From a virus (taxonomy: Duplodnaviria; Caudoviricetes), in IMG/VR virus record IMGVR_UViG_3300028809_000013, positions 332 through 64,331 of that record: a stretch of DNA of 64,000 nt. One strand, 5' to 3'. Positions 8,197 through 63,345 of the stretch are shown here, one piece after another. The position numbers were made by a program, and so were the translations under genes. A model generated the notes under the pieces. That model saw only the letters and a program-made list of their open reading frames with translations. It was not told the origin of the DNA and ran no database searches. Numbering within the stretch: position 1 is the first letter of the stretch; each line of letters starts with the position of its first letter.

Positions 8197-8461
8197 GACG
8201 AGCCGATCCACAGTAGAAGCACCCGAAGCTACAGAGCGAGCCTAGATACTGGAGATACCCGTCTAGTATGAGCGAGCCCGAGCGAAAGGAGTCACCCGCT
8301 GAGAACGAGCGAGCCGTAAGCACCGAGCTATCCGTAATTTGCTAGCGAGTCGCTTTTACCATAGGCATCCGTATACAAAGAACGAGTCGTGCCGCCGAAG
8401 GTAACCTAAGCCTCCAAGCGAGCCGGAGCAGAACAGACGACCTTTGGGTTGGAACGTACAG
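8197..8461 (+). repeat. TIGR-like guide-RNA array A (7 units)
   Basis: Alternating 9-nt repeats ARCGAGYCG and AGNNAYCCG-like, separated by unique 9-11-nt spacers; period 36-38 nt. Confidence 0.85.
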
Positions 8462-8496
8462 CGGGCTACGTAGGGAATCCCTACGTAGCCCGCTGT
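8458..8496. terminator. 19-bp perfect inverted repeat closing array A
   Basis: ACAGCGGGCTACGTAGGGA-A-TCCCTACGTAGCCCGCTGT between convergent units. Confidence 0.7.
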
Positions 8497-8566
8497 TGCA
8501 CCATCGAGCACCCCCACACGGATGTTGCGTACGATAGCCTTCTCCCCCGTGAGCCGCAAGAGGGCT

Positions 8567-36775: not shown

Positions 36776-37909
36776 TCAGTCTCCGAAGAAACGATCGACC
36801 ATGCTGTCGATCACGTCATTCTCGCGCTTCGGGCGCACCCACTCTGCCTTGCGCCCGCCCGGAGCCGCGGTGTTGGGCGGTGTGGTGCGGCGGGCTCCGG
36901 CCATCTTCGCCGTCCTGCGCACCCGTTCCTGCTGGGCCCTGCGGTCCGCCGCCTGCTGGGCCTTGGCGGCGTCCCTGCGCTCCCCGGCCAGCCGCTTGGC
37001 CACCTTGGCGGCATGCGCCCGCACGTCGGCCGCGACCACCTTCGTCCCGGCAGCCGCGGCCCTGCGAAGGAAGTTGTCCACCGAGTCCTGCACGATCTCG
37101 ATGGACTCCGCCTTGCGCACGCCCAGCTTGCCCGCCTCGTCCTGCACCAGCCTGCGCACTGTCTCCGCAACCCGCTGCTCGGATACCCGCTGCTGCGTGG
37201 CCCGCGTCTGCCCCTCACGATGGTTCTGCATGGCGATGGAGCGTTCGCCGTCGAACACCCGGCGCGCCCGCGGATCGTCGGAAAGCTCCTGCACCCGGTC
37301 CAAGGCGGCGGCCAGCAGCTCCGGGTTGCGCAGACCGAGATCCACCAACACTGTTTCGGTGAACAGCTCCGGCTTGGCGTCGGCCACCGTCAGAAGGAAG
37401 TGCTCTCCTCCCGCGGGCGTGGCGAGGTCGGCCATGAACTGCTCGTACTCGGTCTGGAAGGCGCGGGCAGTGGACACCTCGCGCTCCGCCGACTTGCGCA
37501 GTTCCGCCACCTCCTGCGTCTTGCGGGTATAGTCCCGCACCAGACTCTTGTACGCCTTCTCCGCCACCGCCCGCGCCTTGGGGTCGGTGATGGCGTCGAT
37601 TTCCTTGCGGTCGAAGGGGTCGTCCTCCTCATGGCTCGCGTCGTCGCGGTCGCCTTCGGACTCCTCGCTCTCGTCCGCCTCCTCACCCAGCGCGCCGTCG
37701 TCCCCGGTGCCGTCGTCTGCGTCGGACTCCAGATCGCCCAGGCCGTCGCCCGGCGCCTCCAGGTCGTCCGTGTCGCCTTCCACGGTCAGGTCCGCGTCGT
37801 CGTTCAGGATGATGCCCGTCTCGTCGCCCACCGTGTCCGCTTCCTCGGTGCCGCCGAAATGACGGTCGAAGATGTCGTCGGGGATGGACGTGCCCTGCAT
37901 GTCGCTCAT
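36776..37909 (-). CDS. Capsid scaffolding protein
   Basis: Very acidic N-terminus, DYTRKTQE.AE.RK motif, position before the MCP. Confidence 0.8.
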   Translation of the reverse strand: MSDMQGTSIPDDIFDRHFGGTEEADTVGDETGIILNDDADLTVEGDTDDLEAPGDGLGDLESDADDGTGDDGALGEEADESEESEGDRDDASHEEDDPFDRKEIDAITDPKARAVAEKAYKSLVRDYTRKTQEVAELRKSAEREVSTARAFQTEYEQFMADLATPAGGEHFLLTVADAKPELFTETVLVDLGLRNPELLAAALDRVQELSDDPRARRVFDGERSIAMQNHREGQTRATQQRVSEQRVAETVRRLVQDEAGKLGVRKAESIEIVQDSVDNFLRRAAAAGTKVVAADVRAHAAKVAKRLAGERRDAAKAQQAADRRAQQERVRRTAKMAGARRTTPPNTAAPGGRKAEWVRPKRENDVIDSMVDRFFGD

Positions 37910-38030: not shown

Positions 38031-38078
38031 TTTGGTCGATACCCTTGCCCTTGACTTACGGCATAGAGGGATTAGATT
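38031..38078 (+). promoter_or_regulatory. TTTGGTCGATA motif plus promoter of array B
   Basis: Motif at 38031-38041; TTGACT(38051)-N16-TAGATT ending 8 nt before the first repeat. Confidence 0.65.
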
Positions 38079-38086
38079 GAGCCACT

Positions 38087-38421
38087 GTCGAGCCGAAAGT
38101 GGAAAGACAACCGAATCATCTGAGCGAGTCAGTGGAGTGGAAGTAACCCGTAGCCAAAGAGCGAGCCGTGAAACGTTAGACACCCGGACTGGAACAGCGA
38201 GCCGTAGGGATTGAGCCACCCGAAGCAACGCAGCGAGTTGAGTAACGGTAGTCACCCGAGTGCACAACAAGCCGTTTGGTAGTGAGACGCCCGAAGGGAG
38301 GAAGCGAGCCTGACGCGATTGAAGTAACCCGAAAGGGTGTAGCAAGCCGTAGCAATCGATTCAACCGCCTGCCGCCAGCGAGCCGAAGCAGTTGAGATCA
38401 CCGGAAACATCCAGCGCCTTT
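38087..38421 (+). repeat. TIGR-like guide-RNA array B (9 units)
   Basis: Example unit AGCGAGCCG-tgaaacgtt-AGACACCCG-gactggaac; spacers 7-11 nt, mostly 9; followed by hairpin 38426-38460. Confidence 0.9.
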
Positions 38422-38430
38422 CTATGGCCG

Positions 38431-38730
38431 TCAGGGACATGTACCCGCGCCCTGACGGCCGGATTCCTGGTCGTCGCGGGCACGCTGGGCGCAAAGCCAC
38501 TGGATCTGCTGTTCCATGTCGGAGAAACGGGCCTCATAGTTCCGGTCCAGCGTGTTCTGCGCATCGAAGGCACGTTCCATATCGGTGCGCAGGCGTTGGG
38601 TGTCGGCCTCGTTCTCGTTGGTGCGATACTCGGTGCGTGCCACCGCCACGAACACACCCATGGCTGGTAGGATGAAGGCGAGCACCCATCGAGGGATGCG
38701 CAGGTCGTTGTTGCTATCGGATTCAGCCAT
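38431..38730 (-). CDS. Membrane-anchored coiled-coil protein (holin/spanin-like)
   Basis: One TM helix, coiled coil, two C-terminal Cys; same architecture as 27137-27550. Confidence 0.6.
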   Translation of the reverse strand: MAESDSNNDLRIPRWVLAFILPAMGVFVAVARTEYRTNENEADTQRLRTDMERAFDAQNTLDRNYEARFSDMEQQIQWLCAQRARDDQESGRQGAGTCP

Positions 38731-38764: not shown

Positions 38765-39115
38765 ATGCCCAAGGTCGTGATCGACGGAGTACAGTACATC
38801 CCCATGCCCGCGCCGCTGGAAGATGCCGACGAACTCATGCGTGCGCTGGAGGTGCGGTTCGACAGTGACGCTGGCGACAATCTCACGGTCCGCGAGTACC
38901 TGCGCATCCTACTGGACACGCTGTGGGTCGAGGAGGAGGGCTTCAGCGGAAAGCGTCCTTTCGGCAACAGTGGATGGAAGTATGAGTTGTACGAACCCTT
39001 GGTCCGGGACGGCTTCCTCCCTGGCGAAGTGGAAGACGGTAGGCATTTCCCGGATAGCTACGAAGACGCAGACCAATACGTCCGCCTGTTGATTCAGGCG
39101 ATGACGCGTCCGTAA
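38765..39115 (+). CDS. Conserved phage hypothetical protein
   Basis: TVREYL..LL.TLW.E.EGFSGKRPFGNSGW motif; stop overlaps the first repeat of array C. Confidence 0.7.
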   Translation: MPKVVIDGVQYIPMPAPLEDADELMRALEVRFDSDAGDNLTVREYLRILLDTLWVEEEGFSGKRPFGNSGWKYELYEPLVRDGFLPGEVEDGRHFPDSYEDADQYVRLLIQAMTRP

Positions 39116-39560
39116 GCCGAAGTATAGGAGCCACCCGTCGTATCGAAGCGAGTCAAAATTTCAGAGACGCCCGTATTGCAGGAACGAGTCTAACGGACAA
39201 AGCCACCCGTACGGGAAGAACGAGCCGCAACGAACGAGTAACCCTTTGGATAAAGAGCGAGCCAGCGTTTTTGAGACACCCGTCATCGACTAGCAAGCCG
39301 TGGTTCACGATACACCCGACGCTACTAGAGCGAGCCGTGCGAGCTGTGAGTAACCCGTGGCAGACTAGCGAGCCGTAGAATGTGAGATAACCGCGCCGCT
39401 TCAAAGCGAGCCGTACATCTTGAATCACCCTGTCTGACCAAAGCGAGCCGTGTCCGGGGAAGCCACCCTTCTGCCCTTGAACGAGCCGGAACTCGCAAGT
39501 CACCCATCCAGCCAGAACGAGCCGTCGAACCCGATACACCCTGCTCCTTGGAGCGCCGCA
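39111..39560 (+). repeat. TIGR-like guide-RNA array C (12 units)
   Basis: Example unit AACGAGCCG-gaactcgca-AGTCACCCA-tccagccag; 24 unique spacers of 9-11 nt. Confidence 0.9.
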
Positions 39561-39562
39561 GC

Positions 39563-39599
39563 AACCAGCCCCGCCTGTACGGTACAGGCGGGGCTGGTT
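39563..39599. terminator. 18-bp perfect inverted repeat closing array C
   Basis: AACCAGCCCCGCCTGTAC-G-GTACAGGCGGGGCTGGTT between the array and the portal stop. Confidence 0.7.
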
Positions 39600-39605
39600 C
39601 TCTCT

Positions 39606-45860: not shown

Positions 45861-45935
45861 CTCGTCGCCTGCCCCGTGCTGTGGGTTGGTTGATCTCACT
45901 ACAACCAATCTATATTCTCACGCATCCGAAGTCAA
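45858..45935 (-). promoter_or_regulatory. Repeated promoter-leader cassette, copy 3
   Basis: TTGACT-N17-TAGATT; 29 nt identical to copy 1. Confidence 0.75.
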
Positions 45936-48715
45936 GAGCCTTCTTCAACTCGCTCCGCGAGTCGCTCCCGGTGCTCCCTGACCCGACGTTCCCGCGCCGT
46001 CTCGCCTCGCCTCTCCTGCGTCACTAGCTCCGGCGGCGCGACGCGGGCGAGGGTCGCATAGCGCTCGCCGTCCAGCATGTGCATACCTCCAGCCGTGTTC
46101 TTGTCCGGCCCCGGTGTGTGCGCTTCGTAGGGTTTGGGCTTCTTCCAGCGCAGGTTCTTCATCTCCCACAGCAGGCGCGAACCAGCCATGAATTCACCCT
46201 CGTCGCTGGCGTCCGCCCCCGGTCGCAGATGCACCCATTCGCTGTACAGGTTGTCAAAGATGTACCAGCGCGGCTCGCCCACGGCGCTGGGCGAGCCGCG
46301 CTCCACCGTCAGCGGCGGCTCCCGCTTGGTGCTGGGGGCCAGCAGGTTTTGCAGCATGCGAATGCCGGCGTCCACCGCCTTCAACTTCTGGTCGAGCTGC
46401 GTAAAGACGAGCCGGGCGCCGATCTCTGCCGCGGCAGCGTTCAACTCGATGCTGTCCTGTAGCGCAGCGGTGTCGATGTAAATGGTGAGCGTGGCGTCCC
46501 GGTCCTCATTCAACCACGGCAGCACGGGTGGATAGAACCGGCTCCGGGTCTTGCCCTCCTCGTCGGTGCTCTCCACCGTACGGCCCCTGGTGAGATCGCG
46601 CCACACCGCGGACACCCGCTGCTCCGCCGTCTCCCCGCTGCCGCTGAAATACTCGTACACCGTGTACACGCGCCCCGTCTCGTCCATCGCCTTGATGACA
46701 AGGGCGAAGAAGTACGCCGAGTCGCAACCGCCCCACACCTCATAGTGTTGCGGCACCTTGAAGGCGGGGATGACGTGCACCGCCGGGTCGAAATCCGCAT
46801 ACACGCCCCCGGTGCGGCGCTTGTAGATGCCGAAGACGCGTACCATCCGCTCCGCCGGGTCTTTGTAGCGGCGGGCGAAGCGGAGTACCTTCTCGCGGTC
46901 CATGTGGGGCACTTTGATGCGACCCACCCCCATGCTGGCGCGATCCCGCTTCTCCAACGCTTCGTCGTACTCCGCGAGCCCGCCTTCGATCACGTACACG
47001 TCCGGGTTGTCCCCGCCCTTGTTGCCCGCCGGCAGGTACAATCCCTCCTCCATCCAGCCCAGCCCGTTGACCGGGGTGACGGTGATGTAAATCTGCCCGC
47101 CCGTGGTCGCCACGCGCGCCGCGGCCTCGTTGAAGTGCTCCTCCGGCACCGGCTCGTCCAGATGGATGTGCCCCACCGCGTCACCCGTCCAGCTCGTTGC
47201 GGCCTGCTCGTACGACACGAACCAGATCCGGCAGACGCCACCGTCCACCCGCCGGATCGTGGCGCACTTGTGCTGCTCGCTCCAGTGCACCAGCAGGCGA
47301 TGCGGGACGAGGGAGAGAAAAATCTTCCGCGTCACCTTCTCGTAGAAAGGGAAATCCGGGAAACCGGACCACAGCGTCTCGATGAGCGGCACCCGCTTGT
47401 ACGGGTGCACACCGTGGGCTCGCCAGATGTTGTCAATATGTGCGATTGTCGTGTTGTGGGTAACAATGCAGTTCTCCACAACATAGGTACGCTCCGGGTG
47501 CGCCACCTCTATGCAGACCTGCTCGGTTTCTCCGGCGGGATCGATGCGAACCAAGATGCGTTCTTTGGTAACGCAAGGGTTTCTCTGGCGCGCCAACTTG
47601 CGGGAAAGCCTGAATAAAGGCACGTCGTGGACGCGTATGTTGACGCGGTACGACTCCCGTCCCAGCCGTTTTTCTCCTTTGTACGTGTACGATGTTCTGC
47701 GTACTCCCATAACCGCAGTACCACCCAACGACTGAGCCAGGAAAACAACCGCATCAGCCAGACACTTTGATGTAGAACTAAACTCAATCTGCCCATTCTT
47801 TAGCGCCGATCCATCCGTGTCCATCAGTCCTTGCAAGAGCGCAAGTCGCTGAGGGGCGTCGTTGTACAAATAGCAGTCGGGGACGTGTTTCTCCCATGAC
47901 CGCTTGCCCATCAACCCCAGCCCCCGCAGGGACGCAGTCAACGGGTTTGAACGAACGAAGTCCCCCTTCGCGTTGCGCGCATACGGGGCCGGTATACTCC
48001 AGTCGCAGTTTGTTCCTTTGACTTTTTGCAAACTGACGCCATCAGGAAGCAACCTGCGCACCTCTTCCAACAATTCATCATCAACGCTGGAAAGCCTAAC
48101 CGCATCTTTGCTGATCCCACCGTCGCCCAACAGCACGCCCATCAGATACGGGTCTACCGGCACGTCGCAAGCGGGCAAGCGCACAGCCCCTACGGCGGGT
48201 ATGCTGAACCTCTGAGGCGGCTTGGGCCGCATGCCGCCGGGGCTACTCAGAATGTCACGCAGCGAGTACACACCCCATTGCATGTAGCGCCGACCAAAGC
48301 TCTGCTTGCCAGTGGCGTTCGGGTTGGCTTTGACAAAGCGAGCCTGCGGGTCTTTGGCCTTCCACAAATGGTCCAAGCCGCAACGGGTAGAGGCGCCATC
48401 GTTGAAAGTAAGCCGGTACACCGGCTTCACACCTTGGGGATAGACCCCTACCACAGGAGTAGGCGTGCCATCTCCAGCTATCACCAAGTCACCCACGCAC
48501 AACTCTCCCATCTCACGCCATCCGCTCGGCGTGAGTACGGGAGTGTCTACCGGCATCTCCTTCCCGTACCGATTTGAGGCGATATTCAGGACAACGGGGT
48601 AGTCCGCAATGCAGTATTCTTCCTGTCCCTCGTGGGGGGTAAACGGAAACTCGGCGGGACGCAGCAAATCCCGCCGAGGAGCCCACGGAGATACCAGATC
48701 GTCAATCGCGCTCAC
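45932..48715 (-). CDS. terL: Terminase large subunit, intein-containing
   Basis: Walker A ASNRYGK/TT split by the intein; Walker B IHLDEP; TVTP..G; nuclease motifs GGCD and H.LD..RY. Confidence 0.9.
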   Translation of the reverse strand: MSAIDDLVSPWAPRRDLLRPAEFPFTPHEGQEEYCIADYPVVLNIASNRYGKEMPVDTPVLTPSGWREMGELCVGDLVIAGDGTPTPVVGVYPQGVKPVYRLTFNDGASTRCGLDHLWKAKDPQARFVKANPNATGKQSFGRRYMQWGVYSLRDILSSPGGMRPKPPQRFSIPAVGAVRLPACDVPVDPYLMGVLLGDGGISKDAVRLSSVDDELLEEVRRLLPDGVSLQKVKGTNCDWSIPAPYARNAKGDFVRSNPLTASLRGLGLMGKRSWEKHVPDCYLYNDAPQRLALLQGLMDTDGSALKNGQIEFSSTSKCLADAVVFLAQSLGGTAVMGVRRTSYTYKGEKRLGRESYRVNIRVHDVPLFRLSRKLARQRNPCVTKERILVRIDPAGETEQVCIEVAHPERTYVVENCIVTHNTTIAHIDNIWRAHGVHPYKRVPLIETLWSGFPDFPFYEKVTRKIFLSLVPHRLLVHWSEQHKCATIRRVDGGVCRIWFVSYEQAATSWTGDAVGHIHLDEPVPEEHFNEAAARVATTGGQIYITVTPVNGLGWMEEGLYLPAGNKGGDNPDVYVIEGGLAEYDEALEKRDRASMGVGRIKVPHMDREKVLRFARRYKDPAERMVRVFGIYKRRTGGVYADFDPAVHVIPAFKVPQHYEVWGGCDSAYFFALVIKAMDETGRVYTVYEYFSGSGETAEQRVSAVWRDLTRGRTVESTDEEGKTRSRFYPPVLPWLNEDRDATLTIYIDTAALQDSIELNAAAAEIGARLVFTQLDQKLKAVDAGIRMLQNLLAPSTKREPPLTVERGSPSAVGEPRWYIFDNLYSEWVHLRPGADASDEGEFMAGSRLLWEMKNLRWKKPKPYEAHTPGPDKNTAGGMHMLDGERYATLARVAPPELVTQERRGETARERRVREHRERLAERVEEGS
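47453..48559 (-). mobile_element. Intein with LAGLIDADG homing endonuclease (369 aa, class-3-like)
   Basis: Block A EMPVDTPVLTPSGW, block B DHLW, motifs YLMGVLLGDG and LLQGLMDTDG, block F VCIEV, block G IVTHN|T; visibly lower GC. Confidence 0.9.
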
Positions 48716-53565: not shown

Positions 53566-54371
53566 CGCCGCTCCTCCCTGTCCCGCGCGATAGCATCCGC
53601 CAGCGCCAAGGACCGCTCCTCCGCCAGCAGGTCGTCCAGCGCTTCCGCCGGAGACGCAGGCTCCTTCAAATCCGGCAGCGCTGCGCGCATCTCCGCGTTG
53701 TAGCCGTTGTGGCGCTGACGGATCGCGGCGAGGGCAGCATACGCCTCGGCATGATCCTGCGCGGGAGCGGAGCGGAGGGCGGAAACGACAGAAGCCGCGA
53801 TCCCGTCCCACGGAAGACGGTTCATCTCGCGCGGGTAACTCTGCGCATAGTTCCTCAGAACTGTGACCACCGTAAGCCGATCGGCCTCCTCCCGCTCACG
53901 CGCGGTGGCCTCGGCCACTACCCTGTCCCACTCGGCGCCCGGTCCTTCGTCCGTCTCCCGCGCGGCTCCCTGCTGGGAGGGGACGGGAGGCGTGGCGTAA
54001 ACACGCTCGAACTCGCGGCCGGGGGCGAAGTCGGCCGGCGCGCCGTGCACGCAGCAGTAGGGGTCCAGCACGTGCGGGTGCAGCAGGCCCACCGAGCCGT
54101 CCTCCGGGCTCGCCCATTCACACGTGCAGCATACGCTTTCTTCCTCCCCGTCCCCCTGCTGTGCACCGGAGGGAGCATCCCCCTCCTCACCGATGAAACC
54201 GTTGGCCCGCCGCACCCGCTGCACCGCCTCGGGGATGGTGTCGGCACACTCCCGATTATCGCCCTGCGTCGCCCACCACACCGGAGACCCCCACACCGTT
54301 CCAGAACTCATCGTCACCGTGGGCTCATCGCTCGCCACGGTCACATACTCGCTCTCGTCAATCTCGCTCAT
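53562..54371 (-). CDS. Hypothetical protein
   Basis: GAGG RBS; starts just downstream of array D. Confidence 0.6.
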   Translation of the reverse strand: MSEIDESEYVTVASDEPTVTMSSGTVWGSPVWWATQGDNRECADTIPEAVQRVRRANGFIGEEGDAPSGAQQGDGEEESVCCTCEWASPEDGSVGLLHPHVLDPYCCVHGAPADFAPGREFERVYATPPVPSQQGAARETDEGPGAEWDRVVAEATAREREEADRLTVVTVLRNYAQSYPREMNRLPWDGIAASVVSALRSAPAQDHAEAYAALAAIRQRHNGYNAEMRAALPDLKEPASPAEALDDLLAEERSLALADAIARDREERR

Positions 54372-54395
54372 CGCCTCTGTCCTTGTGTCCGGTTT

Positions 54396-54625
54396 GGTTA
54401 CGTTCAAGACGTACGGGTGACTCTACACTCTACCGGCTCGTTCCAAATTCGTCCGGGTTACTCGTCTGCTACGACTCGTTCTTTTGGTCCGGGTTACTCC
54501 GCGCGGCCCGACTCGCTCTTAGCATACGGGTTGCTCTAGTACGGCGGCTCGCTCACACACTTCGGGTGACTATTCAGTTACGACTCGTTCCCGAATTCCG
54601 GGTTACTTGTGCCAAACGGCTCGCT
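54396..54625 (-). repeat. TIGR-like guide-RNA array D (6 units), directly downstream of the tas-like gene
   Basis: Minus strand reads AGCGAGCCG-tttggcaca-AGTAACCCG-gaattcggg-AACGAGTCG-taactgaat-AGTCACCCG-aagtgtgtg...; 7 nt gap after the stop codon. Confidence 0.9.
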
Positions 54626-54632
54626 GTGTGTC

Positions 54633-55913
54633 TCAGTACCTCCCAATCATCTGCCACGGTCCCACGTACGACGCCTCGGAATGGCCCAGCACGGAGATGG
54701 CGTAGGGCTGACCCACCGGCAGGCCCAGCGCTTCCCGCCACACTTGCCAGAGATGCGACAGGAAAAGCTTCTCCGTCTTGCGCAGCGCCGTCAGGTGCTT
54801 GCGCCCGTCCGCCCAGCCCACGCGCTCGCGGTCCAGCTTCGCCCGCTCGGCGCGGTACACCTGCTCGTACTTGCCCCGCGGCACCTTCAGGAAGCCAGTG
54901 CCTACCAGATACATCTGCTTCTTCACGTAGGCGTCGTAGGTGGACTTCTGCCCGCGCGCCGGCTTGGGCTGGGCCGCACGCACACCGTCCTCCGGGCCGG
55001 CCACCTTCACCAGGGCGCCGGTGCACGAGGCGGTGCTTCCGAGCGCCTGATGCTTGCCGGTCACGTTGTAGCCCACCGGCCAGTCGCGCGTCATACCGCA
55101 GGCGGCGCAGGCGTAGCGCTCGCCGGGCACCGTGGCGAGGCCCGCGTACGCCCAAAACGCGGACGCCGTGGTCGCCTTCCTCGGGTCCAGCCGCGCCAGC
55201 AGCTTGCACGCGAGCGTAGGCCCGATCCCCTTCACCTGCGACAGCCACGGCCAGCAAACGTGGTCTTTCAGCGCACGCTCCATCTCCTTGCGAAGCTCCT
55301 GCTCCTCGGACCACGCGCGGTGGTACATGCGGCCCAGGATCGGCACCGGCCCGCTCTCCTCGCCACGGGCGATGGCGCCCAGCATCTCCTCCACACCCGC
55401 GACCTCCTCCGTCCCCTCGCCCCACGTCTCGTCGCGGCCCTGAAGCACGGCGCGAATCTGCTCGCCGCACCCGATACGCTTGCGCTGCGCCTGCTCGTAC
55501 CCGTCCGCGAGGAAACGCAGCATGCGGTCGTTCTCGGACTGCGGGGGCGCCTCGTGGTTGGCCGCCGACAGAACCGTCTGCGTCGCCACAAAGGAGTCCA
55601 GATCGGCTTCATGGCGTCCGACAAGGCCACGCCGTGCCTTCCACTCCTCGTTCTCCTGATGCTCACGCAGTTCCGTCAGCCCCTTCTTGCCGAAGCCGCG
55701 AATCAGCAGCAGCGCTTCGTCCGACAGCCGCGCCGCCGCCGCGGGCGTGGCGAAGCCGTCGCTGCGCAGCGCGTTGGACGTGCGCGCCGACAGATCGGAC
55801 CAATCCTCGTCCCGCCCGGCCACGGCGGCTCCGTGGCGGGAGGAGAAGAACGTCACGTCCGTGCGCTCCCCGCTTGCCAGCTCCTTCAGCGCTTCCCTCT
55901 CGATGGTGCTCAT
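54633..55913 (-). CDS. TIGR-associated (Tas)-like Nop-domain protein with N-terminal RNAP alpha-CTD-like domain
   Basis: IS110/Nop-type core (Q..RI...QIR coil; WLSQVKGIGP.LA..LLA; SAFWAYAGL; H..A.RK..KLFLSHLW..WR...GLP); no RuvC DEDD domain; aa 37-84 resemble alpha-CTD; adjacent array. Confidence 0.85.
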   Translation of the reverse strand: MSTIEREALKELASGERTDVTFFSSRHGAAVAGRDEDWSDLSARTSNALRSDGFATPAAAARLSDEALLLIRGFGKKGLTELREHQENEEWKARRGLVGRHEADLDSFVATQTVLSAANHEAPPQSENDRMLRFLADGYEQAQRKRIGCGEQIRAVLQGRDETWGEGTEEVAGVEEMLGAIARGEESGPVPILGRMYHRAWSEEQELRKEMERALKDHVCWPWLSQVKGIGPTLACKLLARLDPRKATTASAFWAYAGLATVPGERYACAACGMTRDWPVGYNVTGKHQALGSTASCTGALVKVAGPEDGVRAAQPKPARGQKSTYDAYVKKQMYLVGTGFLKVPRGKYEQVYRAERAKLDRERVGWADGRKHLTALRKTEKLFLSHLWQVWREALGLPVGQPYAISVLGHSEASYVGPWQMIGRY

Positions 55914-55967
55914 CTTCGGCTGCCTTGCTTCCGGTTGGTAGTATACAAATTGTACTGCGACGTAATC

Positions 55968-55996
55968 AACTTACATCACGGCATAACTCCGCGCAA
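55968..55996 (-). promoter_or_regulatory. Promoter of the tas-array D unit
   Basis: TTGCGC-N17-TAAGTT. Confidence 0.65.
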
Positions 55997-56004
55997 GTGT
56001 CTCG

Positions 56005-57180
56005 TTACTGCGGACCTGCCATCGTGGATGCCGCGGTAGGCGAGGCGGGGTGCAGAGGCGCCAGCAGCAGCGTATAGGGCGGCGAGCCCTCCGGCACCGC
56101 GGCCGGGGTGATGATGATCGGCTGTCCGGGATGGCCGGGCAGGTCGATCCGTGCCTTGTCCCCCGGCACCTTGTCCATCAGGGCGAGCATCTGCTTGGCG
56201 TTGATGCCGCAGGTGAAGTCCGGCCCGTCCCCCTCCACATCCACCATATCGCGTGCGAGCCCGTTGCGGGTGGCGCTGTACAGGTGCAGTTCCTTGGCGT
56301 GACGCACCGCGAAACGCACCGGATGGATGTCCTCGCCGCTCGCCACCACGTCCATCCGCATCAGCGCCTCGATCAGCGGCTTGCGCTCCGCCTCAATCCA
56401 GGAACAAAGCTGCTGGCGCGCCCGATTGAGCACGTCGTCCACGACGGAGGGGAACAACTCGGTGAGCGTCTTGGCGTGGTACTCCCGGTCGCCGGCCCGG
56501 AACGATGCCCATCCCTTGTCCACCGACACGCCGACCGAGTCCGTGGGCTCGAAGAAACGCTGCACGTTGGCGACGGACGGGGGCAACAGGCTGATTTCGG
56601 TTCCCGGCTCCGGCTGCCGTCCGCCCTCATAGGGAACCTGAAGCTCCGCGAACACAGCGCTGTCCCCCGCGATGACCTGCATGTGCGTGGGCTTGAAGCG
56701 CAGCGCCATCCCCAACAGCGCCGGCCGCCCCATCTCCGGGGTCGCCACCGCGAACGCCACATGATCCGCGGCGAGGTGCAGGTACTCCCCCGGCACGTAC
56801 AGGATCGGGTCGTCCGGGGCGCCACCCACCGGCGGGAAATCGTCCACGTCCATCTGTGGGATGTCGTACCGGCTGCGGCCCACGGCGATGGCCACCATCC
56901 CCTTGCCTTCCACCGCGAACGACACCTCCAGCCCGCTCGGCTTGCGCAACGCCTCGGCCAGCATGTGCGCGCCCAGCAGCAGCCGCCCCGGCTGGCGCAC
57001 CATCGCCGCGACCCGGATGCGGGCGGCGGTCTGGATGTCCGTCCCGGTCAGCGTCACGTACCCGCCGGACGCCTCGATGAGCACGCCCCGGCCAGCGGTG
57101 ATGGGCAGGCGGGGGTTAATACTCCGCATCACAAGGGCGAGCGCGGACGAAAACACACTCGCGTTGGCTGTGAATTTCAC
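56005..57180 (-). CDS. dnaN: DNA polymerase III beta sliding clamp
   Basis: GVLIEA....TLTGTD, DDFPP, FAVA....RP.L.G, FP, INAK.ML and P.II patterns; 391 aa from a GTG with GGAGG RBS. Confidence 0.85.
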   Translation of the reverse strand: MKFTANASVFSSALALVMRSINPRLPITAGRGVLIEASGGYVTLTGTDIQTAARIRVAAMVRQPGRLLLGAHMLAEALRKPSGLEVSFAVEGKGMVAIAVGRSRYDIPQMDVDDFPPVGGAPDDPILYVPGEYLHLAADHVAFAVATPEMGRPALLGMALRFKPTHMQVIAGDSAVFAELQVPYEGGRQPEPGTEISLLPPSVANVQRFFEPTDSVGVSVDKGWASFRAGDREYHAKTLTELFPSVVDDVLNRARQQLCSWIEAERKPLIEALMRMDVVASGEDIHPVRFAVRHAKELHLYSATRNGLARDMVDVEGDGPDFTCGINAKQMLALMDKVPGDKARIDLPGHPGQPIIITPAAVPEGSPPYTLLLAPLHPASPTAASTMAGPQ

Positions 57181-57419
57181 CACTTCCTCCTTTTCATGTC
57201 CTTTGCACCCTCCGTCAACCACGCGCCGATAGCGATCAACCAGCACAACACCCACACTACTAGCGGAATCCAGACTGGAGACAACACCAACCACCACGAC
57301 CAATCCAGCTTCCCGCTCATCTTCATTCCTACCAGTGCTCCCTGCACGCTACCCATCAACATCCTTGCGATTCCTTCAAAACCAAACAGATTCGCGCCGA
57401 CCTGCTTCCATTTACTCAT
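57177..57419 (-). CDS. Small membrane protein
   Basis: K..G.LDWSWWLVLSPVWIP motif. Confidence 0.7.
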   Translation of the reverse strand: MSKWKQVGANLFGFEGIARMLMGSVQGALVGMKMSGKLDWSWWLVLSPVWIPLVVWVLCWLIAIGAWLTEGAKDMKRRKW

Positions 57420-57813: not shown

Positions 57814-60474
57814 TTATGCCGCACGTGCGGCCATGCGCTCCAACAGCTCCTCCATCATCCCACGTTCGTCGCTCGCCATCTCTCCGTCCGTCGCGGTGGA
57901 CACCTCCCGGCGCCTGCGGTCCAGGATCGCCATGATATCCTCCTCGATGGTGTCCTCCGCCAGCAGATACCAGTGGTTCGCCGGATCGGGCTTGTCGATG
58001 TGCCCAACTCTCATCTCCAACTGGTCCATGTCGTCCGGCGTCCACCCCAGTTCGATGATGGCGGTGTCGTTGGCTGCGGTCAGCGTCAGGCCCATGCCGC
58101 CACTCTGGAAGTTGATGGAGATGAGCGGGCACGCCGGGTCCGCTTTGTACTCCCGGCACGGGAATTCCGCGGCATAATGCAGCTCGTGGGAACGTCCGCA
58201 CGCAGCACAGCGCTGGAACCGCGTCACCGCCTCGTCCTTGCGCCCGGCCGTCACCCCGCCGTGGATGTACGGGGCCTGGAACCGCCGCGCCACTTCCTCC
58301 ACGACCTCCTGATGCCACGCGCCGACGATCAGCTTTTCGCCGCTCTCCTCCATGAAATTGCCGATCCACTCCACCACGCCCGCCATCTTGCCGAACGCGG
58401 CCAATCGCTTCAACGCCCCGATGCGTACCAACCCCTCCGCCCGCTGCGCCCGGTAGGCGGCATCCTGCGCCCTCGCCTTGCGCGCTTCCCGGCGCTGCTC
58501 CGGGCTCATCCCCTCCAGCGACGCGTTGAACTCGCGGTCCTTCAGCGCATGCTCCGCCGCCCAGCCGGCCACGTCACGCTCCGCGCGCTGGTATTCGGCG
58601 CGGTTGTCGATGGTGAAGGGCACGATGTGCCGCTCCACCATGGGAATTTCCGCATACACGTCGCGGCGGCGGCGGCGCACCATGCAGACGCTCCGGAGTC
58701 TCTGGTTCAGCTCCACCATGGCCTCCGGCGGCACCCGCACGCTGCCCATGACGCCGCCAGCATAGCCACAGTAGCGGGTGGCGTAACCGTAGAAGCCACC
58801 CATGTCGTCCAGCCGGTCGATGATCTGCAAAGGCTCGATCAGGTCCGCCGCCTGCTTGCGCATCGGCGTGCCGGACAGGAGAAGCTGCACCATGTCGTGC
58901 ATCACCTCCCGGCAGCGCGTTCGCCAGCCGGCGGCGAGGTGTCGCAGCACCAGCGTGCGCTGCGCCTTCCGCCCCAGCACGTGGCGGTGGAACTCGTCGC
59001 AGACCAGCCCGCGAAACAGCATCTCCGCCAGCGGGCCGTCGCAAGTATCCACGATGCGCTTGCCGCGGTTGTTCACGGTCCAACGCACCCCGGCCCAATC
59101 CATCAGGATGTCGTAATTGATGATGAGGACTTCGGCGCTACGGAGCTGGCGCAGGCACTCCCCGAACCATTTCTCGTGCCGCTCGGCATAGCGCAGCGCC
59201 GGCCCCGTCTCGATCCAGTTGTCCGGCTCGCGCGGCGCCTTGCCGTCCAACACCGCCACGGATCTTCCGAGCAACCAGCGCTCCGCTTCCCGGCGCCATG
59301 CAGACTTCAGGGTGGCCGGCACCACCAGCAGCGCGGGATAGGATTCGGTGTGGCAGAGGGTCGCCAACGCCTGTGCGCTTTTCCCCAAACGCATCTCGTC
59401 CGCAAGGATGATCCGCCGCTGCCGGGACGCGTAGGAGACGCCCACGCGCTGGAAGGGGCGCAGCGTGCCGCCGAGATTGTCCACGTGGAATTCAGTGTCG
59501 GGCAGGCGACTTTCTTCAAGGTTGGCTTCCGCGCGCTGGAGCGCCGACTCCGCCCGCTCCAGCGCGTCGGCCTCCACCTCGAAGTCGTGCTCGGCGGCGA
59601 AGCGCAGCAACTCCGCGCCGGTGAGCTCCGGAACCTCCCACACCTTCTGTGCGTTGACCCAGCGCGCCCCCGGCAACTGCTTTACCGCAGTCACCAGCGC
59701 CGCGCTGTACGGGAATGAGACGCAGAACCGTTCTCCACCCCAAGTCACCCGGCGAGGGTTGGGACGAGGCTGGGCTTCGGTATCCACCTTGGGCTCCTTC
59801 CGCTCCCACGTGGCCCGCGCCGCCGCCACTCGCTCCGGGTCGCTGAGATAGGCGTCCGCCTTGGCCCAGCGCACGCGGGCCTGCCGCGCTAGTTCTTGCT
59901 CTCGGGATACAACAGATTCATCAACTTGTCCGCCTCTTCCACTACGGACTCCAGAATCCCTTCCATGAATCGCACCGGGTCGGTGCGGTCCGCAGTCTTG
60001 AAACGATGTACCGCTTCGCTCTTCGCTCCGACAATGGCGGACTGTATCAATCCCCTCGCCTGCTCCCTGTCCAGCATCGGATTCCTTGGGTTGATGGGAA
60101 CGCAGATCCACGCACTTGCGCGGCAACCAGCATTCGATTGTGGTTTCTGTGGCGACACGATTCCGGATGGCTTCCCGCTCGGCGGGGCTCATCGCGGCGT
60201 AGGTTTCGGCGTGGGGCAGGCCCAACTCTTTGGAACAATCGGTCCCGAATCCCAGCAGGCGAGAGGCGGGGTTATCGATGTCGCGACCGCAGCGCTGGCA
60301 AACCTCACATTCACGCACCAACACGTGCGCGCGAACCTGCACCGCAGCCGGCGTTACGCGGACAACCTCGGCGGCGATCTCGCGGCTGGCGATGCCCTTG
60401 TCCTTGGCCAGCCACGCGGGCAGGCCCAATTCAATGCGATCCCCTACCGCAAACTGCACTTCCGCTGTCGTCAT
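57814..60474 (-). CDS. SNF2-family helicase with HARP-like and N-terminal Zn-finger (DUF6011-like) domains
   Basis: LRPFQ..GV, ILADEMRLGKS, CDEFH, LLSGTP, GLTLT.A, Q.E.R; FPYS..LV..VK.LPG.RW; CQRCGR....P.S...G.G.DC. Confidence 0.9.
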   Translation of the reverse strand: MTTAEVQFAVGDRIELGLPAWLAKDKGIASREIAAEVVRVTPAAVQVRAHVLVRECEVCQRCGRDIDNPASRLLGFGTDCSKELGLPHAETYAAMSPAEREAIRNRVATETTIECWLPRKCVDLRSHQPKESDAGQGAGEGIDTVRHCRSEERSGTSFQDCGPHRPGAIHGRDSGVRSGRGGQVDESVVSREQELARQARVRWAKADAYLSDPERVAAARATWERKEPKVDTEAQPRPNPRRVTWGGERFCVSFPYSAALVTAVKQLPGARWVNAQKVWEVPELTGAELLRFAAEHDFEVEADALERAESALQRAEANLEESRLPDTEFHVDNLGGTLRPFQRVGVSYASRQRRIILADEMRLGKSAQALATLCHTESYPALLVVPATLKSAWRREAERWLLGRSVAVLDGKAPREPDNWIETGPALRYAERHEKWFGECLRQLRSAEVLIINYDILMDWAGVRWTVNNRGKRIVDTCDGPLAEMLFRGLVCDEFHRHVLGRKAQRTLVLRHLAAGWRTRCREVMHDMVQLLLSGTPMRKQAADLIEPLQIIDRLDDMGGFYGYATRYCGYAGGVMGSVRVPPEAMVELNQRLRSVCMVRRRRRDVYAEIPMVERHIVPFTIDNRAEYQRAERDVAGWAAEHALKDREFNASLEGMSPEQRREARKARAQDAAYRAQRAEGLVRIGALKRLAAFGKMAGVVEWIGNFMEESGEKLIVGAWHQEVVEEVARRFQAPYIHGGVTAGRKDEAVTRFQRCAACGRSHELHYAAEFPCREYKADPACPLISINFQSGGMGLTLTAANDTAIIELGWTPDDMDQLEMRVGHIDKPDPANHWYLLAEDTIEEDIMAILDRRRREVSTATDGEMASDERGMMEELLERMAARAA

Positions 60475-61124: not shown

Positions 61125-61549
61125 GTAGGGTGAAGCAATCTCGTCCCAACAACACTCACGCGGTTCGTAAAGAGATCGAACGCAATCGCTTCCTGACCGG
61201 GACGCCAGACCGGGTATCCCATCTCCTCCGCGTATCCCACGGTAGAGGCAGTGCCCCTTCCTCCAAGAAACGCAACCACTAAATCAGGATACGATTTCTT
61301 CAGCATTTCCCGATTGCGGATCGGGCCAGCGCGCCTTCCGTGCTTCTGCCAGTCGGCAGGAAACTCCATCAGCGCCACATCCATGCGTTCAGCCCACTCC
61401 TTGGCAAACATATCCGCGCCCGGTGCCCCACCATGCACCAAGAGCGTGATCGGCCGCTTTTCGTGCAACTCACACAGCGCTGCGAACACAAAAGTCCGGG
61501 ACGCATAATCACGACCCCCGGTCACCACCACCACGTTTCGTGTCACCAT
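61121..61549 (-). CDS. SLOG-family (DUF2493/YspA-like) protein
   Basis: VVVTGGRDY...LVHGGAPGAD...FPADW..HGR.AGPIRN..ML...GGRGT. Confidence 0.9.
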   Translation of the reverse strand: MVTRNVVVVTGGRDYASRTFVFAALCELHEKRPITLLVHGGAPGADMFAKEWAERMDVALMEFPADWQKHGRRAGPIRNREMLKKSYPDLVVAFLGGRGTASTVGYAEEMGYPVWRPGQEAIAFDLFTNRVSVVGTRLLHPT

Positions 61550-63345
61550 TCTTCACCTTCCTGCACGTGGCGCTGCGTGATCCGGAGGTTCCTACGGTTG
61601 AAGCGAAAAGGCACTTCCAGGGTCGGACCGTGGCGGTTCTTGGCGAGCACCGCCACGCTGTCAACGTCTCCGGTGGGGTAGGCGTGGCCGTTACCGTGCA
61701 GGTTGATGCTCTCCGTGACCGGCCGGACGCGGGAATGGTCGGGGATGATGATCTGGTCCGGATCGGCGGCCATCTGCATGCCCCCGTAGAGATCCTGCAT
61801 CACCGGCGTCTCCTTCTTCTTCGCGGCCTCGTTAGTGAGCTGCGACAGGCCAAAGATCAACAGACGGTGCTCTTTTGCCAGCCGGAAAAGCGACTGCGAG
61901 CCAGCGATGGCATGCTCATGCACCTTCTTCTCCACGCCGTGCGAAAGCATCCACAAAAGCTGGAGATAGTCCACCACGAAGGTGCGACAGCCACAGTACT
62001 CCCACAGGTGCAGGATGGACGACGTTACATCGTCTACACTGCGCAACAGCTCGCGGTTCGCTTTGATGACACCACCCGTCTCCTCCATGATGATCGCCAT
62101 CCGCTCGGCGGCAATATCCCACGTCGCGCGGTTGAAGCGCTCGCCGTAGCCAAGCTCCGCCGCCGTCACGTCCGCGATCATGGGCAGGAACCGGCCGGCG
62201 TTCTGCCCCTGAGACATCTCCATGGAGACAAAGCCCACGCGCTCGCCGTGCATGAAGGCGGTGGCGGCGCAGTTCTGCGCCAGCATGGACTTGCGACCGT
62301 TCTGCCCGCCGCCGATCACCACGTACCAGCCGTGGGCAAGCCCCGCCTCGCCGCCCTCGTCGCCACAGGCTTCGGACCACTTGGCCCACGGCGTAGGTAC
62401 CACGTCGAGCGGACGTTCCCGCTCCTCCGCCATGCGCTCCAGCGTGTCGCCAACCAGCGAATCGAAGGCGAACGGCGGCTTGGGGGTGCCAATCTTCTCC
62501 GCGGCCCGCATCAGCCCGTCCATGCGGACACGGAAGCCGGCCGGGTCCTGCTGGCGCAGCGCGCAGGGGTCTTTGGCCCCCGCCGCGGCGGCGCGGATCA
62601 CCTTGGCATCCGGTAGGTCAGCGGCGATGGAGCGCACCATGATCGCACCGCCGCCGTCCGGCTCCTCCCACACGTAAACGTCACGGTCCGTCAGGAAGGG
62701 CAGCACGGCTTCCCGGCAGTGCAACCACGTATCGGCCCCAGGAAGGCCCAAGGCCATGATTCCGACGCACCAGAGTGCCTGCGTGTCAGTCTCCCCTTCC
62801 ACGAGGAACACAGGAGCGTCTGGCGCGATCTTGGGGAGCATCCAGAGCCCGTAGCAGCCGGGGATGCTGCCGCCCTCGCCCTCCCAATACTGGTTCTTCT
62901 TGCCCGGCCGCTTCTGGAGGCGCAAGCGGCGGCGCAGGAGCGCGCCGTCCAGCCCATAATAGGGGATGTACACCACGGGCGAGCCGAACTTGCCCACTTC
63001 GGACACCACGCCCCACGACTCCAGCCGGTCCGCTGGCAATCCCTTCTCCGCCGCGTAGTCGTCCACCGTGTAGCCGCGATGCTGGCGGATGCTCACCTCG
63101 ATTCCCAGCGCGTCGGCCAGCCCCATCAGGCGCCCGCTCCCCTGACCGCCGCACCCGCTGCACTTCCAGCCGTACTCGCCCAGCATGGCGGACGCGGTCG
63201 TGTCGTCGTGGGCCACCAACGGGCAGCGGAAGCGGAGCAGGCCGTTCGGTCCCGGCGTCGGCTTCAGCTCGGACCTGCGGCGAATCTCGTCCGCCAGCAG
63301 GGCGCGCAGCCCGGCGATGTCCGCGACTTCGATTGCGGCGCTCAT
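61543..63345 (-). CDS. Primase-helicase (Zn finger, Toprim, DnaB-like)
   Basis: CP...HDD...C.GC; LVEGETD; KDP; FVSMEMS; VVDYLQL; LSQL; AKNRHGP. Confidence 0.9.
   Translation of the reverse strand: MSAAIEVADIAGLRALLADEIRRRSELKPTPGPNGLLRFRCPLVAHDDTTASAMLGEYGWKCSGCGGQGSGRLMGLADALGIEVSIRQHRGYTVDDYAAEKGLPADRLESWGVVSEVGKFGSPVVYIPYYGLDGALLRRRLRLQKRPGKKNQYWEGEGGSIPGCYGLWMLPKIAPDAPVFLVEGETDTQALWCVGIMALGLPGADTWLHCREAVLPFLTDRDVYVWEEPDGGGAIMVRSIAADLPDAKVIRAAAAGAKDPCALRQQDPAGFRVRMDGLMRAAEKIGTPKPPFAFDSLVGDTLERMAEERERPLDVVPTPWAKWSEACGDEGGEAGLAHGWYVVIGGGQNGRKSMLAQNCAATAFMHGERVGFVSMEMSQGQNAGRFLPMIADVTAAELGYGERFNRATWDIAAERMAIIMEETGGVIKANRELLRSVDDVTSSILHLWEYCGCRTFVVDYLQLLWMLSHGVEKKVHEHAIAGSQSLFRLAKEHRLLIFGLSQLTNEAAKKKETPVMQDLYGGMQMAADPDQIIIPDHSRVRPVTESINLHGNGHAYPTGDVDSVAVLAKNRHGPTLEVPFRFNRRNLRITQRHVQEGEEW

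Follow-up and report, generated by a model that had tools for sequence, protein, structure and literature searches.

The subject of this analysis is a gene for a 426-amino-acid (aa) Tas protein, together with its guide arrays, in a stretch of viral DNA of 64,000 nucleotides (nt) that is called the window below (positions 332 to 64,331 of IMG/VR virus record IMGVR_UViG_3300028809_000013; Duplodnaviria, Caudoviricetes). On the evidence of its sequence, the locus is a TIGR-Tas system with dual repeats, encoded by a phage and belonging to the nuclease-less type, TasA. At its N-terminus the protein carries a domain of the family named after the C-terminal domain of the RNA polymerase (RNAP) alpha subunit (alpha-CTD), and a variable linker tethers this domain to the RNA-binding core. 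We lean, with slightly more than even confidence, toward a protein that binds or blocks DNA under the control of its guides and uses its tethered domains to hold the DNA on either side of the target. Membership in TIGR-Tas is of an already known kind; what differs here is the folded N-terminal domain and the dispersal of arrays to distances of 15-46 kb from the gene.

TIGR-Tas systems were described in 2025 in three forms, in which the Tas protein is solo or carries an HNH or a RuvC domain (Faure et al. 2025, PMC12045711). Their guides are tigRNAs of ~36 nt, one of which is held by a coiled-coil dimer; the spacers pair with opposite strands, and the DNA is strongly bent (PMC12045711). Reversible, guide-dependent repression of transcription has been shown for TasA and for catalytically dead TasR (bioRxiv 10.64898/2026.09.09.750476), and TasA clades with extended disordered N-termini have been reported (Xu et al.).

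The tas gene and the Tas core

The tas gene is an open reading frame on the minus strand (54633..55913) with an ATG start and a stop codon at 54635-54633. A sigma-70-like promoter, TTGATT-18-TATACT, lies upstream on the same strand (55969..55940); it is a consensus match only, with 1 site seen where 0.1 is expected from shuffles. The first dual-repeat array stands 7 nt 3' of the stop codon, and the order of promoter, gene and array is as, and where, the first-pass annotation of this DNA had put it. The G+C content at third codon positions (GC3) is 0.87-0.91 in the N-terminal part and the core alike, and 0.74 in the linker; because both parts share the higher value, they are read as a single reading frame. 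A full-length AlphaFold2 model (61 sequences) has a mean predicted local distance difference test score (pLDDT) of 90.5 and a predicted TM-score (pTM) of 0.71, and shows the N-terminal 125 aa as a helix, the alpha-CTD-like domain, and the linker.

Residues 126-426 (54636..55538, minus strand) make up the Tas core, a coiled coil plus a Nop/IS110-type RNA-binding domain, which is assigned from both sequence and fold matches. The NCBIfam equivalog NF052498 (TIGR_Tas_endo, titled 'TIGR-Tas system RNA-guided endonuclease') aligns along its full profile (1-215) with aa 132-393 and scores 204.7 bits, against a cutoff of 100. The best sequence matches in the PDB by phmmer are TasR (9mty_A, E 1.3e-17) and TasH (21kl_A, 2.3e-6), and the best 10 rows of a Foldseek search with the full-length model are all TasR or TasH chains. 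In VIA-align, the core superposes on TasH 9w04_B with a Z of 20.6 and on TasR 9mty_B with a Z of 20.1 (root-mean-square deviation, rmsd, 2.2 over 199 residues). Z values for Tas structures overall range from 18 to 20.6, those for IS110-type recombinases (including 9t56_A and 8wt9_A) from 13.5 to 13.9, and those for Nop5, Nop56-58 and Prp31 from 6.4 to 7.6. The TIGR-Tas-like system with a Nop-like core that had been proposed at first pass is thus borne out by the NF052498 match, by the likeness to TasR and TasH in sequence and fold, and by the 36-nt dual-repeat array.

Nuclease families (HNH, RuvC, DEDD) are absent from the 426-aa protein in a Pfam scan at E<=10, and the protein is therefore a TasA by domain content. 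The sole Pfam family in the core is Transposase_20, at 22.4 bits (gathering threshold 21.3), and a PHROG scan labels the product 'transposase'. An identity as an IS110 transposase, which this label and some database names imply, was rejected, since the protein reaches 35.8 bits with the IS110 model NF033542, whose cutoff is 140, and DEDD_Tnp_IS110 is not found. The lack of a RuvC/DEDD domain had been noted earlier, and it holds in these scans.

SpTasH cuts its own pre-tigRNA with the aid of Y289 and H296 (PMC13421893). In an HMMER alignment, Y404 and H411 of the Tas protein align to these two residues, and both are invariant in the five proteins that share the N-terminal fusion; by this alignment, the tigRNA-processing Tyr/His dyad is kept in the fused Tas protein. 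Within the Nop core, a beta-rich insert (protein aa 261-314) holds C269, C272, H288, and C297, which are invariant in 61/61 aligned Tas relatives. This Cys2-His-Cys insert looks like a zinc site, of which no mention was seen in the accessible portions of the TIGR-Tas papers. A variant of this insert and of the N-terminus is found in P0007 (402 aa), a protein close to the fused protein P0003, where the first ~20 residues are kept, the alpha-CTD-like domain is absent, and an insert of ~70 aa rich in Cys and His sits within the Cys2-His-Cys region of the core.

The N-terminal domain and linker

Residues 34-94 (55632..55814, minus strand) form a helix-hairpin-helix domain that Pfam, BLASTP and VIA each place in the alpha-CTD family. 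PF03118 (RNA_pol_A_CTD) matches aa 40-84 with an E of 4.1e-6 and 26.9 bits, above its gathering score of 23.8; HHH_5 stays below its threshold (22.3 versus 27), and RpoA NCBIfam models match aa 40-91 only, with 24.1 bits versus a cutoff of 277. The alpha N-terminal domain (RNA_pol_A_bac, RNA_pol_L) is absent from the Pfam scan of the 426-aa protein, which means that the fused protein cannot assemble into polymerase. At E<=10, 12 of the 15 PDB sequence matches of the protein are RNAP alpha chains, aligned over aa 37-87 with E values of 0.044-2.4.

BLASTP aligns aa 34-84 without a gap to residues 255-305 of E. coli K-12 RpoA (14/51 identities, pair E 7e-5). In this alignment R44, N47, A48, G75, K76, K77, and G78 are the equivalents of R265, N268, C269, G296, K297, K298, and S299, which we take to be the DNA-contact residues of the E. 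coli alpha-CTD (the '265 determinant'). D37, W38, and D40 are likewise equivalent to D258, D259, and E261, presumably the residues of RpoA that contact sigma region 4. The first-pass annotation had described an ungapped alignment that keeps R265, N268, G296, and K298 and acidic residues at the D258 and E261 positions, and the comparison with K-12 RpoA reproduces it.

The two sets of positions behave differently across the five fused proteins. R44, N47, A48, G75, and G78 do not vary, all five proteins have K or R at position 76, and position 77 reads K, K, R, K, and A. At the putative sigma-contact positions, the D258 equivalent reads D, D, D, A, and D, the D259 equivalent is W in 5/5, and the E261 equivalent reads D, D, E, G, and A. 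Altogether 26 positions from W38 to R83 are invariant, R44, T45, N47, A48, G73, G75, G78, and L79 among them. Between the window and two close relatives, codons 1-84 of tas differ by 12 synonymous and 5 non-synonymous changes.

The full-length model gives aa 31-94 block pLDDT values of 80-95 and shows there the short helices typical of helix-hairpin-helix folds. VIA superposes the domain on the RNAP alpha chain 7vpd_S with a Z of 6.0 (rmsd 2.3, 56/57 residues) and on the further alpha chains 9dvt_A and 9dvu_A (Z 6.0) and 8igr_G and 5i2d_A (Z 5.5), with 56-58 residues matched overall; these Z values are modest, as expected for ~57 residues. All five rows that fall on the N-terminal domain among the best 50 VIA matches listed are RNAP alpha chains, and Foldseek gives 7vpd_S a TM of 0.76 with an rmsd of 1.2 over 48 columns. 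The alpha-CTD-like structure foreseen for the N-terminus was upheld in this way, with Foldseek and VIA both placing the AlphaFold2 model on RNAP alpha chains. A domain-only AlphaFold2 model built from 3 close sequences was poor (pLDDT 69.6, three long helices) and was discarded.

The linker (aa 95-125; 55539..55631, minus strand) is marked by low confidence in the model, with block pLDDT values of 75, 51, and 53 over aa 91-120, and its length and sequence differ among the five fused proteins.

The four TIGR arrays

Four arrays with a total of 34 units are present in the window. Array 1 (54401..54625, minus strand) follows the tas gene and has six units and a truncated terminal edge repeat, AACG. 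Its unit consists of an edge repeat A[AG]CGAG[CT]CG, a spacer A of 9-11 nt, a loop repeat AG[TC][AC]ACCCG, and a spacer B of 9-11 nt, with start-to-start distances of 36, 36, 36, 37, and 38 nt. Array 2 (8197..8456, plus strand) has seven units with the same repeats and ends in AACG. Array 3 (38087..38416, plus strand) has nine units, some of them degenerate, and ends in AGCG, as does array 4 (39111..39555, plus strand), which has twelve units and begins at the stop codon of a 116-aa gene (38765-39115, plus strand) that matches phrog_15618, of unknown function. Arrays 2-4 were recognized by their repeat pattern, and they lie 15-46 kb from the tas gene on the opposite strand. Matches to CGAGYC-N9-13-AGNNACCC number 18 in the window where 0.17 are expected, 0/100 shuffles reach 18, and 18/18 matches fall within the four arrays. 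Tandem Repeats Finder reports no array at array 1.

The repeats share a common frame. Edge and loop repeats of the 34 units both start with A and a purine, and the edge ends in YCG where the loop ends in CCG. All 34 loop repeats agree at positions 1, 7, and 8; the edge repeats keep position 1 in 31/34 and position 8 in 33/34 and have C or T at position 7. Repeats of either kind carry G at position 9 in 27/34 units. Shared first and last bases of edge and loop repeats (box D, box C) are expected for a symmetric dimer, and the motif letters here differ from the UG...CCA of TasR (PMC12045711).

A spacer length of 9 nt is found in 24/34 A spacers and 27/34 B spacers. The spacers have a G+C content of 49.2%, lower than the 65.6% of the window and the 61.6% of its roughly delimited non-coding DNA; this low value could be a property of the arrays and not of the targets. 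Both spacers also share a positional bias, with T then A at positions 1-2 and G at position 9, and from these base preferences the effective variable part of a spacer may be 7-8 nt.

Signals around the arrays are uneven. A hairpin of -38.2 kcal/mol (z -9.1) lies directly 3' of array 2 (8456..8499, plus strand), one of -26.1 kcal/mol (z -3.2) after array 3 (38425..38461, plus strand), and one of -38.0 kcal/mol (z -5.8) after array 4 (39560..39601, plus strand), where a T-rich stretch follows. The terminator scan calls none of these three hairpins, and that of array 2 has no T run 3' of it. No hairpin follows array 1, where the fold of 54370-54425 reaches -6.7 kcal/mol with a z of 0.85 and the next gene is ~30 nt on. 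A sigma-70-like promoter, TTGACT-16-TAGATT, precedes array 3 (38051..38078, plus strand), with 1 site seen versus 0.3 expected.

Distribution of the fusion and relatives of the domain

A search of 5.8 billion proteins with the Tas protein gave 202 matches. Among the 120 matches listed, 115 cover 53-74% of the query, and ~100 of these are proteins of 297-345 aa that cover ~64-74% of it, that is, the Tas core alone. The other five, P0001-P0005, cover 93-100%, and all five have the N-terminal domain in common; the fusion is found in these five among the 120 listed. Identity to the query is 89% for P0002 and 61-62% for P0003-P0005. Pfam alpha-CTD scores are 28.7 bits for P0002 and 21.2, 17.8, and 13.4 bits for P0003, P0004, and P0005, the last three below the threshold of 23.8; ten other Tas relatives scanned with Pfam gave 0 matches to the family.

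In a FastTree tree of the core only (61 rows), the five fused proteins group with P0006, a solo protein (325 aa) encoded on a contig of 1.8 kb, in one clade with a local support of 99, and a single origin of the fusion is compatible with this tree. When the first 125 aa were used in a word-index search, P0001 and P0002 were the only longer proteins to match, with none of similar length, and a metagenome scan for fused loci returned two close relatives and four solo-TasA loci. No loci of the distant fused proteins appeared in viral scans with P0003 and P0005, and no Tas relatives were found in GTDB representative genomes. The source records of some solo relatives carry Gemmatimonadota or Longimicrobiales names.

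The relatives of the domain itself are mostly of another kind. A phmmer search with aa 25-95 against 1.84 billion representatives gave 80 proteins at E<=1e-3, of which 44 were taken into a Pfam scan. RNA_pol_A_CTD is present in 41/44, and 31 of these have two to eleven copies. Other domains in the 44 proteins are sigma-70 region 4 in 11, HARE-HTH in 3, and a DnaA C-terminal helix-turn-helix in 1. The RNA_pol_L dimerization domain occurs in 1/44 (P0153), and the other 43 are without an alpha N-terminal domain. By these matches the N-terminal domain belongs to the alpha-CTD family, and its nearest kin are paralogues in other DNA-binding proteins, not RpoA. The relatives P0123-P0200 are a large and apparently uncharacterized set with 2-11 tandem alpha-CTD-family domains.

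One further relative, P0122 (177 aa), matches the Tas protein of the window over the N-terminal helix, the domain, and the beginning of the linker, with 57% identity across 84 aa, and then runs into a different Cys-containing tail (CP...CPSCG) with no Tas core. Since P0122 has the N-terminal module with another tail, the module exists apart from Tas; it may be mobile, or the fusion may derive from a neighboring gene. P0122 could also be a frameshifted Tas gene.

Arrays of relatives and target searches

Two viral contigs encode Tas proteins 88-89% identical to that of the window. Each has 9 matches to the array pattern, versus 0 for a reversed control, at sites syntenic with those of the window; array 2, for example, has a syntenic counterpart in relative G001. 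Some of their units are identical to those of the window, some have single-base spacer changes, and many are wholly different, with the repeats unchanged. The arrays thus behave as guide arrays, since the repeats are conserved while the spacers change. The suggestion that homologues would carry the same fusion beside arrays stood in part, for these two close relatives with syntenic arrays, and the fusion is limited to the 5 proteins among the 120 matches listed.

Solo-TasA loci L007-L009 (55% identity) show a strong 36-nt periodicity 3' of the gene, and the long arrays of L008 and L009 have repeats GAACGAGTC and GAGTAACCC, near-identical to those of the window. In the relative represented by L002/L004 (a 37.5-kb contig), ~450 nt of extra and apparently coding sequence separate the tas stop from the array (L004 7285-7740); in the window and the other close relative, the array is within ~20 nt or less of the tas gene.

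Targets were sought on the contig and in relatives' loci. When the 34 spacer pairs were matched to the contig as 9+9 nt with gaps of 0-2, 8 matches were found, all with 3 mismatches, and ~8-9 are estimated by chance. A shifted register (gaps of -2 to +4, <=2 mismatches) gave 0 matches and a reversed-spacer control 1; the same counts, 0 and 1, came from 8+8 nt with gaps of 0-4 and <=1 mismatch. The 87 units of the phage and its relatives gave 0 matches with <=1 mismatch on the contig and nine loci. In public collections, chance is estimated to yield between a few and more than a thousand matches per pattern to single targets of 16-18 nt. Because none lie in the phage itself, the targets are probably host genes or rival mobile elements.

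Proposed mechanism and alternative explanations

By analogy with the described TIGR-Tas systems, the four arrays would be transcribed and cut into ~36-nt tigRNAs by the Tyr/His dyad of the Tas protein. A coiled-coil dimer would hold one tigRNA, and its two ~9-nt spacers would pair with opposite strands of a target of ~16-18 bp. The ribonucleoprotein would bind this target without cutting it and block passage or assembly there, most likely of transcription. Each protomer would contribute one alpha-CTD-family domain on a flexible linker of ~30 residues, which makes two per dimer. These domains may act as tethered and largely sequence-unspecific grips on the minor groove and backbone of the duplex arms beside the unwound target, possibly with a preference for A/T-rich, UP-element-like DNA. 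Such grips would raise the affinity and dwell time of a binder with a short guide, and, where the host is G+C-rich, could favor its binding close to promoters.

The case for a grip on DNA, in place of a contact with polymerase, is made by the conservation of the alpha-CTD DNA-contact residues, by the variation or replacement of the sigma-contact equivalents, by the missing alpha N-terminal domain, and by the closest relatives of the domain, which sit in DNA-binding proteins. The low pLDDT and variability of the linker, which suit a flexible tether as predicted, and the apparent excess of synonymous over non-synonymous differences in aa 1-84 (12 versus 5) also speak for it. Several observations weigh on the other side. 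Structural support for the alpha-CTD fold comes from the one full-length model (Z 5.5-6.0, ~57 residues). The conserved DNA-contact residues are compatible with protein contacts too, D37 (equivalent to D258) is D in 4/5 fused proteins, and the occurrence of the N-terminal module on the 177-aa P0122 with a different tail could indicate a role in recruiting a partner. None of the 34 spacer pairs has a target that could be recognized in the phage contig or the relatives' loci; 10/34 A and 7/34 B spacers are not 9 nt long and several repeats are degenerate, so that some array units may be dead; and the arrays beside fused tas genes that were read are those of the window and two close relatives.

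The first-pass annotation had put forward an activator, a repressor, or an alpha-CTD decoy. The repressor fits the published experiments on TasA (bioRxiv 10.64898/2026.09.09.750476), and the activator and the decoy, as far as they were written as a link to RNAP, are unsupported. That link would make the protein a natural guide-programmed transcription factor, in which a TasA dimer brings two alpha-CTD mimics to chosen promoters and there replaces, or competes with, the host alpha-CTD at UP elements, sigma region 4, and activators. Activation would follow if the guided domain contacted sigma region 4, an activator, or the alpha-CTD of the polymerase, and a decoy or anti-activator could act at UP elements or activator surfaces. 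We regard such coupling to RNAP as unlikely, though it has real points in its favor: the domain passes the Pfam alpha-CTD threshold, the alpha chains that make up all five of its VIA rows among the best 50 come in several cases from activator complexes (9dvt, 8igr, 5i2d), D37 and D40 occupy the D258 and E261 positions in the window protein, two domains on flexible linkers mirror the geometry of RNAP alpha, the A/T-richer spacers would suit targets in promoter regions, and alpha-CTD repeats share a polypeptide with sigma-70 region 4 in 11/44 of the relatives scanned. Yet the protein has no alpha N-terminal or dimerization domain with which to join polymerase, and the sigma-contact positions are largely unconserved, with an invariant W at the D259 equivalent and D, D, E, G, and A at that of E261. 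The nearest relatives are non-RpoA paralogues, with RNA_pol_L in 1/44, and no spacer pair matches the phage promoters or the rest of the contig; the low G+C content of the spacers could also stem from the arrays.

A role outside transcription, in DNA transactions of the phage, seems quite improbable. Guided bending or blocking would then serve replication control, the exclusion or loss of rivals, or recombination, with the helix-hairpin-helix as an adaptor to DNA or to a partner. The tas gene does lie in the replication module, flanked by the sliding clamp on one side and by genes of unknown function on the other, with the Snf2 and primase-helicase genes close by, and the N-terminal module also occurs on the small P0122 with its different Cys-rich tail. 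TasR drove plasmid loss and not defense in E. coli, and the authors of that work suggest that such systems may serve mobile-element inheritance and assist integrases (PMC12045711). However, a PHROG scan of 38 proteins and a Pfam scan of 19 show no integrase, ParB, or partition gene, self-targets were not found on the contig, and existing TasA experiments show transcriptional repression (bioRxiv 10.64898/2026.09.09.750476). That the locus is a decaying or inert relic of an IS110-like or Tas gene, whose repeats have degenerated and whose N-terminal extension arose by accident, is very improbable indeed. Units with off-length spacers or degenerate repeats, the lack of a hairpin of its own at array 1, and the failure to find targets on the contig and in the relatives' loci would fit a relic, but the reading frame is intact with a GC3 of 0.87-0.91 in N-terminal part and core, the model is confident (pLDDT 90.5), synonymous changes outnumber non-synonymous ones, the dyad and 26 positions of the N-terminal domain are invariant despite 64-67% identity, and the four syntenic array sites are kept in related phages with turnover of their spacers.

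Relation to known systems

The system is closest in kind to TasA (FpTasA, MbTasA, PlTasA), with which it shares the Nop-type core, the coiled coil, the absence of a nuclease domain, a dual-repeat array beside the gene with paired spacers of ~9 nt in a 36-nt unit, a phage origin, and the Tyr/His dyad of dual-repeat systems. It differs from the TasA proteins described as a solo Nop or with a disordered N-terminus, as far as the accessible descriptions go, in its folded alpha-CTD-family domain and linker, and further in having four arrays, three of them 15-46 kb off on the other strand, and a Cys2-His-Cys insert in the core. TaTasR (9MTY) and SpTasH (9W03, 9W04, 21KL) are the best sequence and fold matches of aa 126-426 and have an extra domain at the same N-terminal position; in them this domain is a target-cutting nuclease, RuvC or HNH, whereas here it is a non-catalytic helix-hairpin-helix. 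IS110/IS621 recombinases (8WT6, 9T56) share the fold of the RNA-binding core (VIA Z 13.5-13.9) and differ in their DEDD/RuvC domain, which is lacking here, and in their single bridge RNA, in place of which arrays are found.

With the bacterial alpha-CTD, the N-terminal domain shares the passing PF03118 score, the ungapped alignment to 255-305, the kept R265, N268, G296, K297, and K298, the VIA Z of 5.5-6.0, and a tether by a flexible linker with two copies per dimer. Unlike RNAP alpha, it comes without the alpha N-terminal domain, and the sigma-contact positions are largely unconserved in the fused clade. Engineered dCas9 activators are fusions to polymerase subunits. Together with the nuclease-free CRISPR types, they resemble the present system in guide-programmed occupancy with an optional part from the transcription machinery; they differ in belonging to an unrelated protein family, in lacking two-strand recognition by split spacers, and in that the fusion here is natural. 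The nuclease-free types in question, IV and V-M, are named in the discussion of PMC12045711.

The first-pass annotation did not know this fusion as a described Tas class, and no published description of a TasA/alpha-CTD fusion was found in the accessible portions of the literature on TIGR-Tas, where supplementary tables and the TIGRSafari catalogue may list the clade. A folded non-catalytic N-terminal domain on TasA thus seems to be undescribed. If so, a fourth Tas class may exist, with a natural non-catalytic N-terminal module from a domain family of the transcription machinery, and evolution would have added to a guide-programmed binder a function other than cutting. The protein may offer a compact natural template for programmable bacterial repressors or activators that need no protospacer-adjacent motif, and the fusion lets one ask whether a tethered alpha-CTD-like grip alters affinity, target choice, and transcriptional outcome. 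Were the doubtful RNAP-coupled alternative true, the phage could switch up to 34 host or rival loci through 36-nt RNAs from four separately controlled arrays. The far-off arrays also mean that surveys confined to the surroundings of tas would undercount guides.

Phage setting

The contig of 64,331 bases is the virus record of a soil phage with 65.6% G+C. No integrase, ParB, or partition genes were seen within the scanned proteins named above, and no exact terminal repeat of 20-200 bases was found on the contig. PHROGs identify a major head protein (35439-36707), a scaffold (36776-37909), a portal (39606-41903), and a large terminase candidate of 927 aa (45932-48715, minus strand). The N-terminal P-loop region of this last protein also matches DNA primase and DnaC-like loader PHROGs, which makes the terminase label insecure for the protein as a whole. 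A sliding clamp (56005-57303), a Snf2-type helicase (57814-60474), and a primase-helicase (61543-63345) follow beyond the tas gene, again by PHROGs. The genes for head, scaffold, portal, and terminase proteins and those of the replication module sit on the minus strand almost throughout, and the contig represents the genome of a tailed phage, either whole or as a large fragment.

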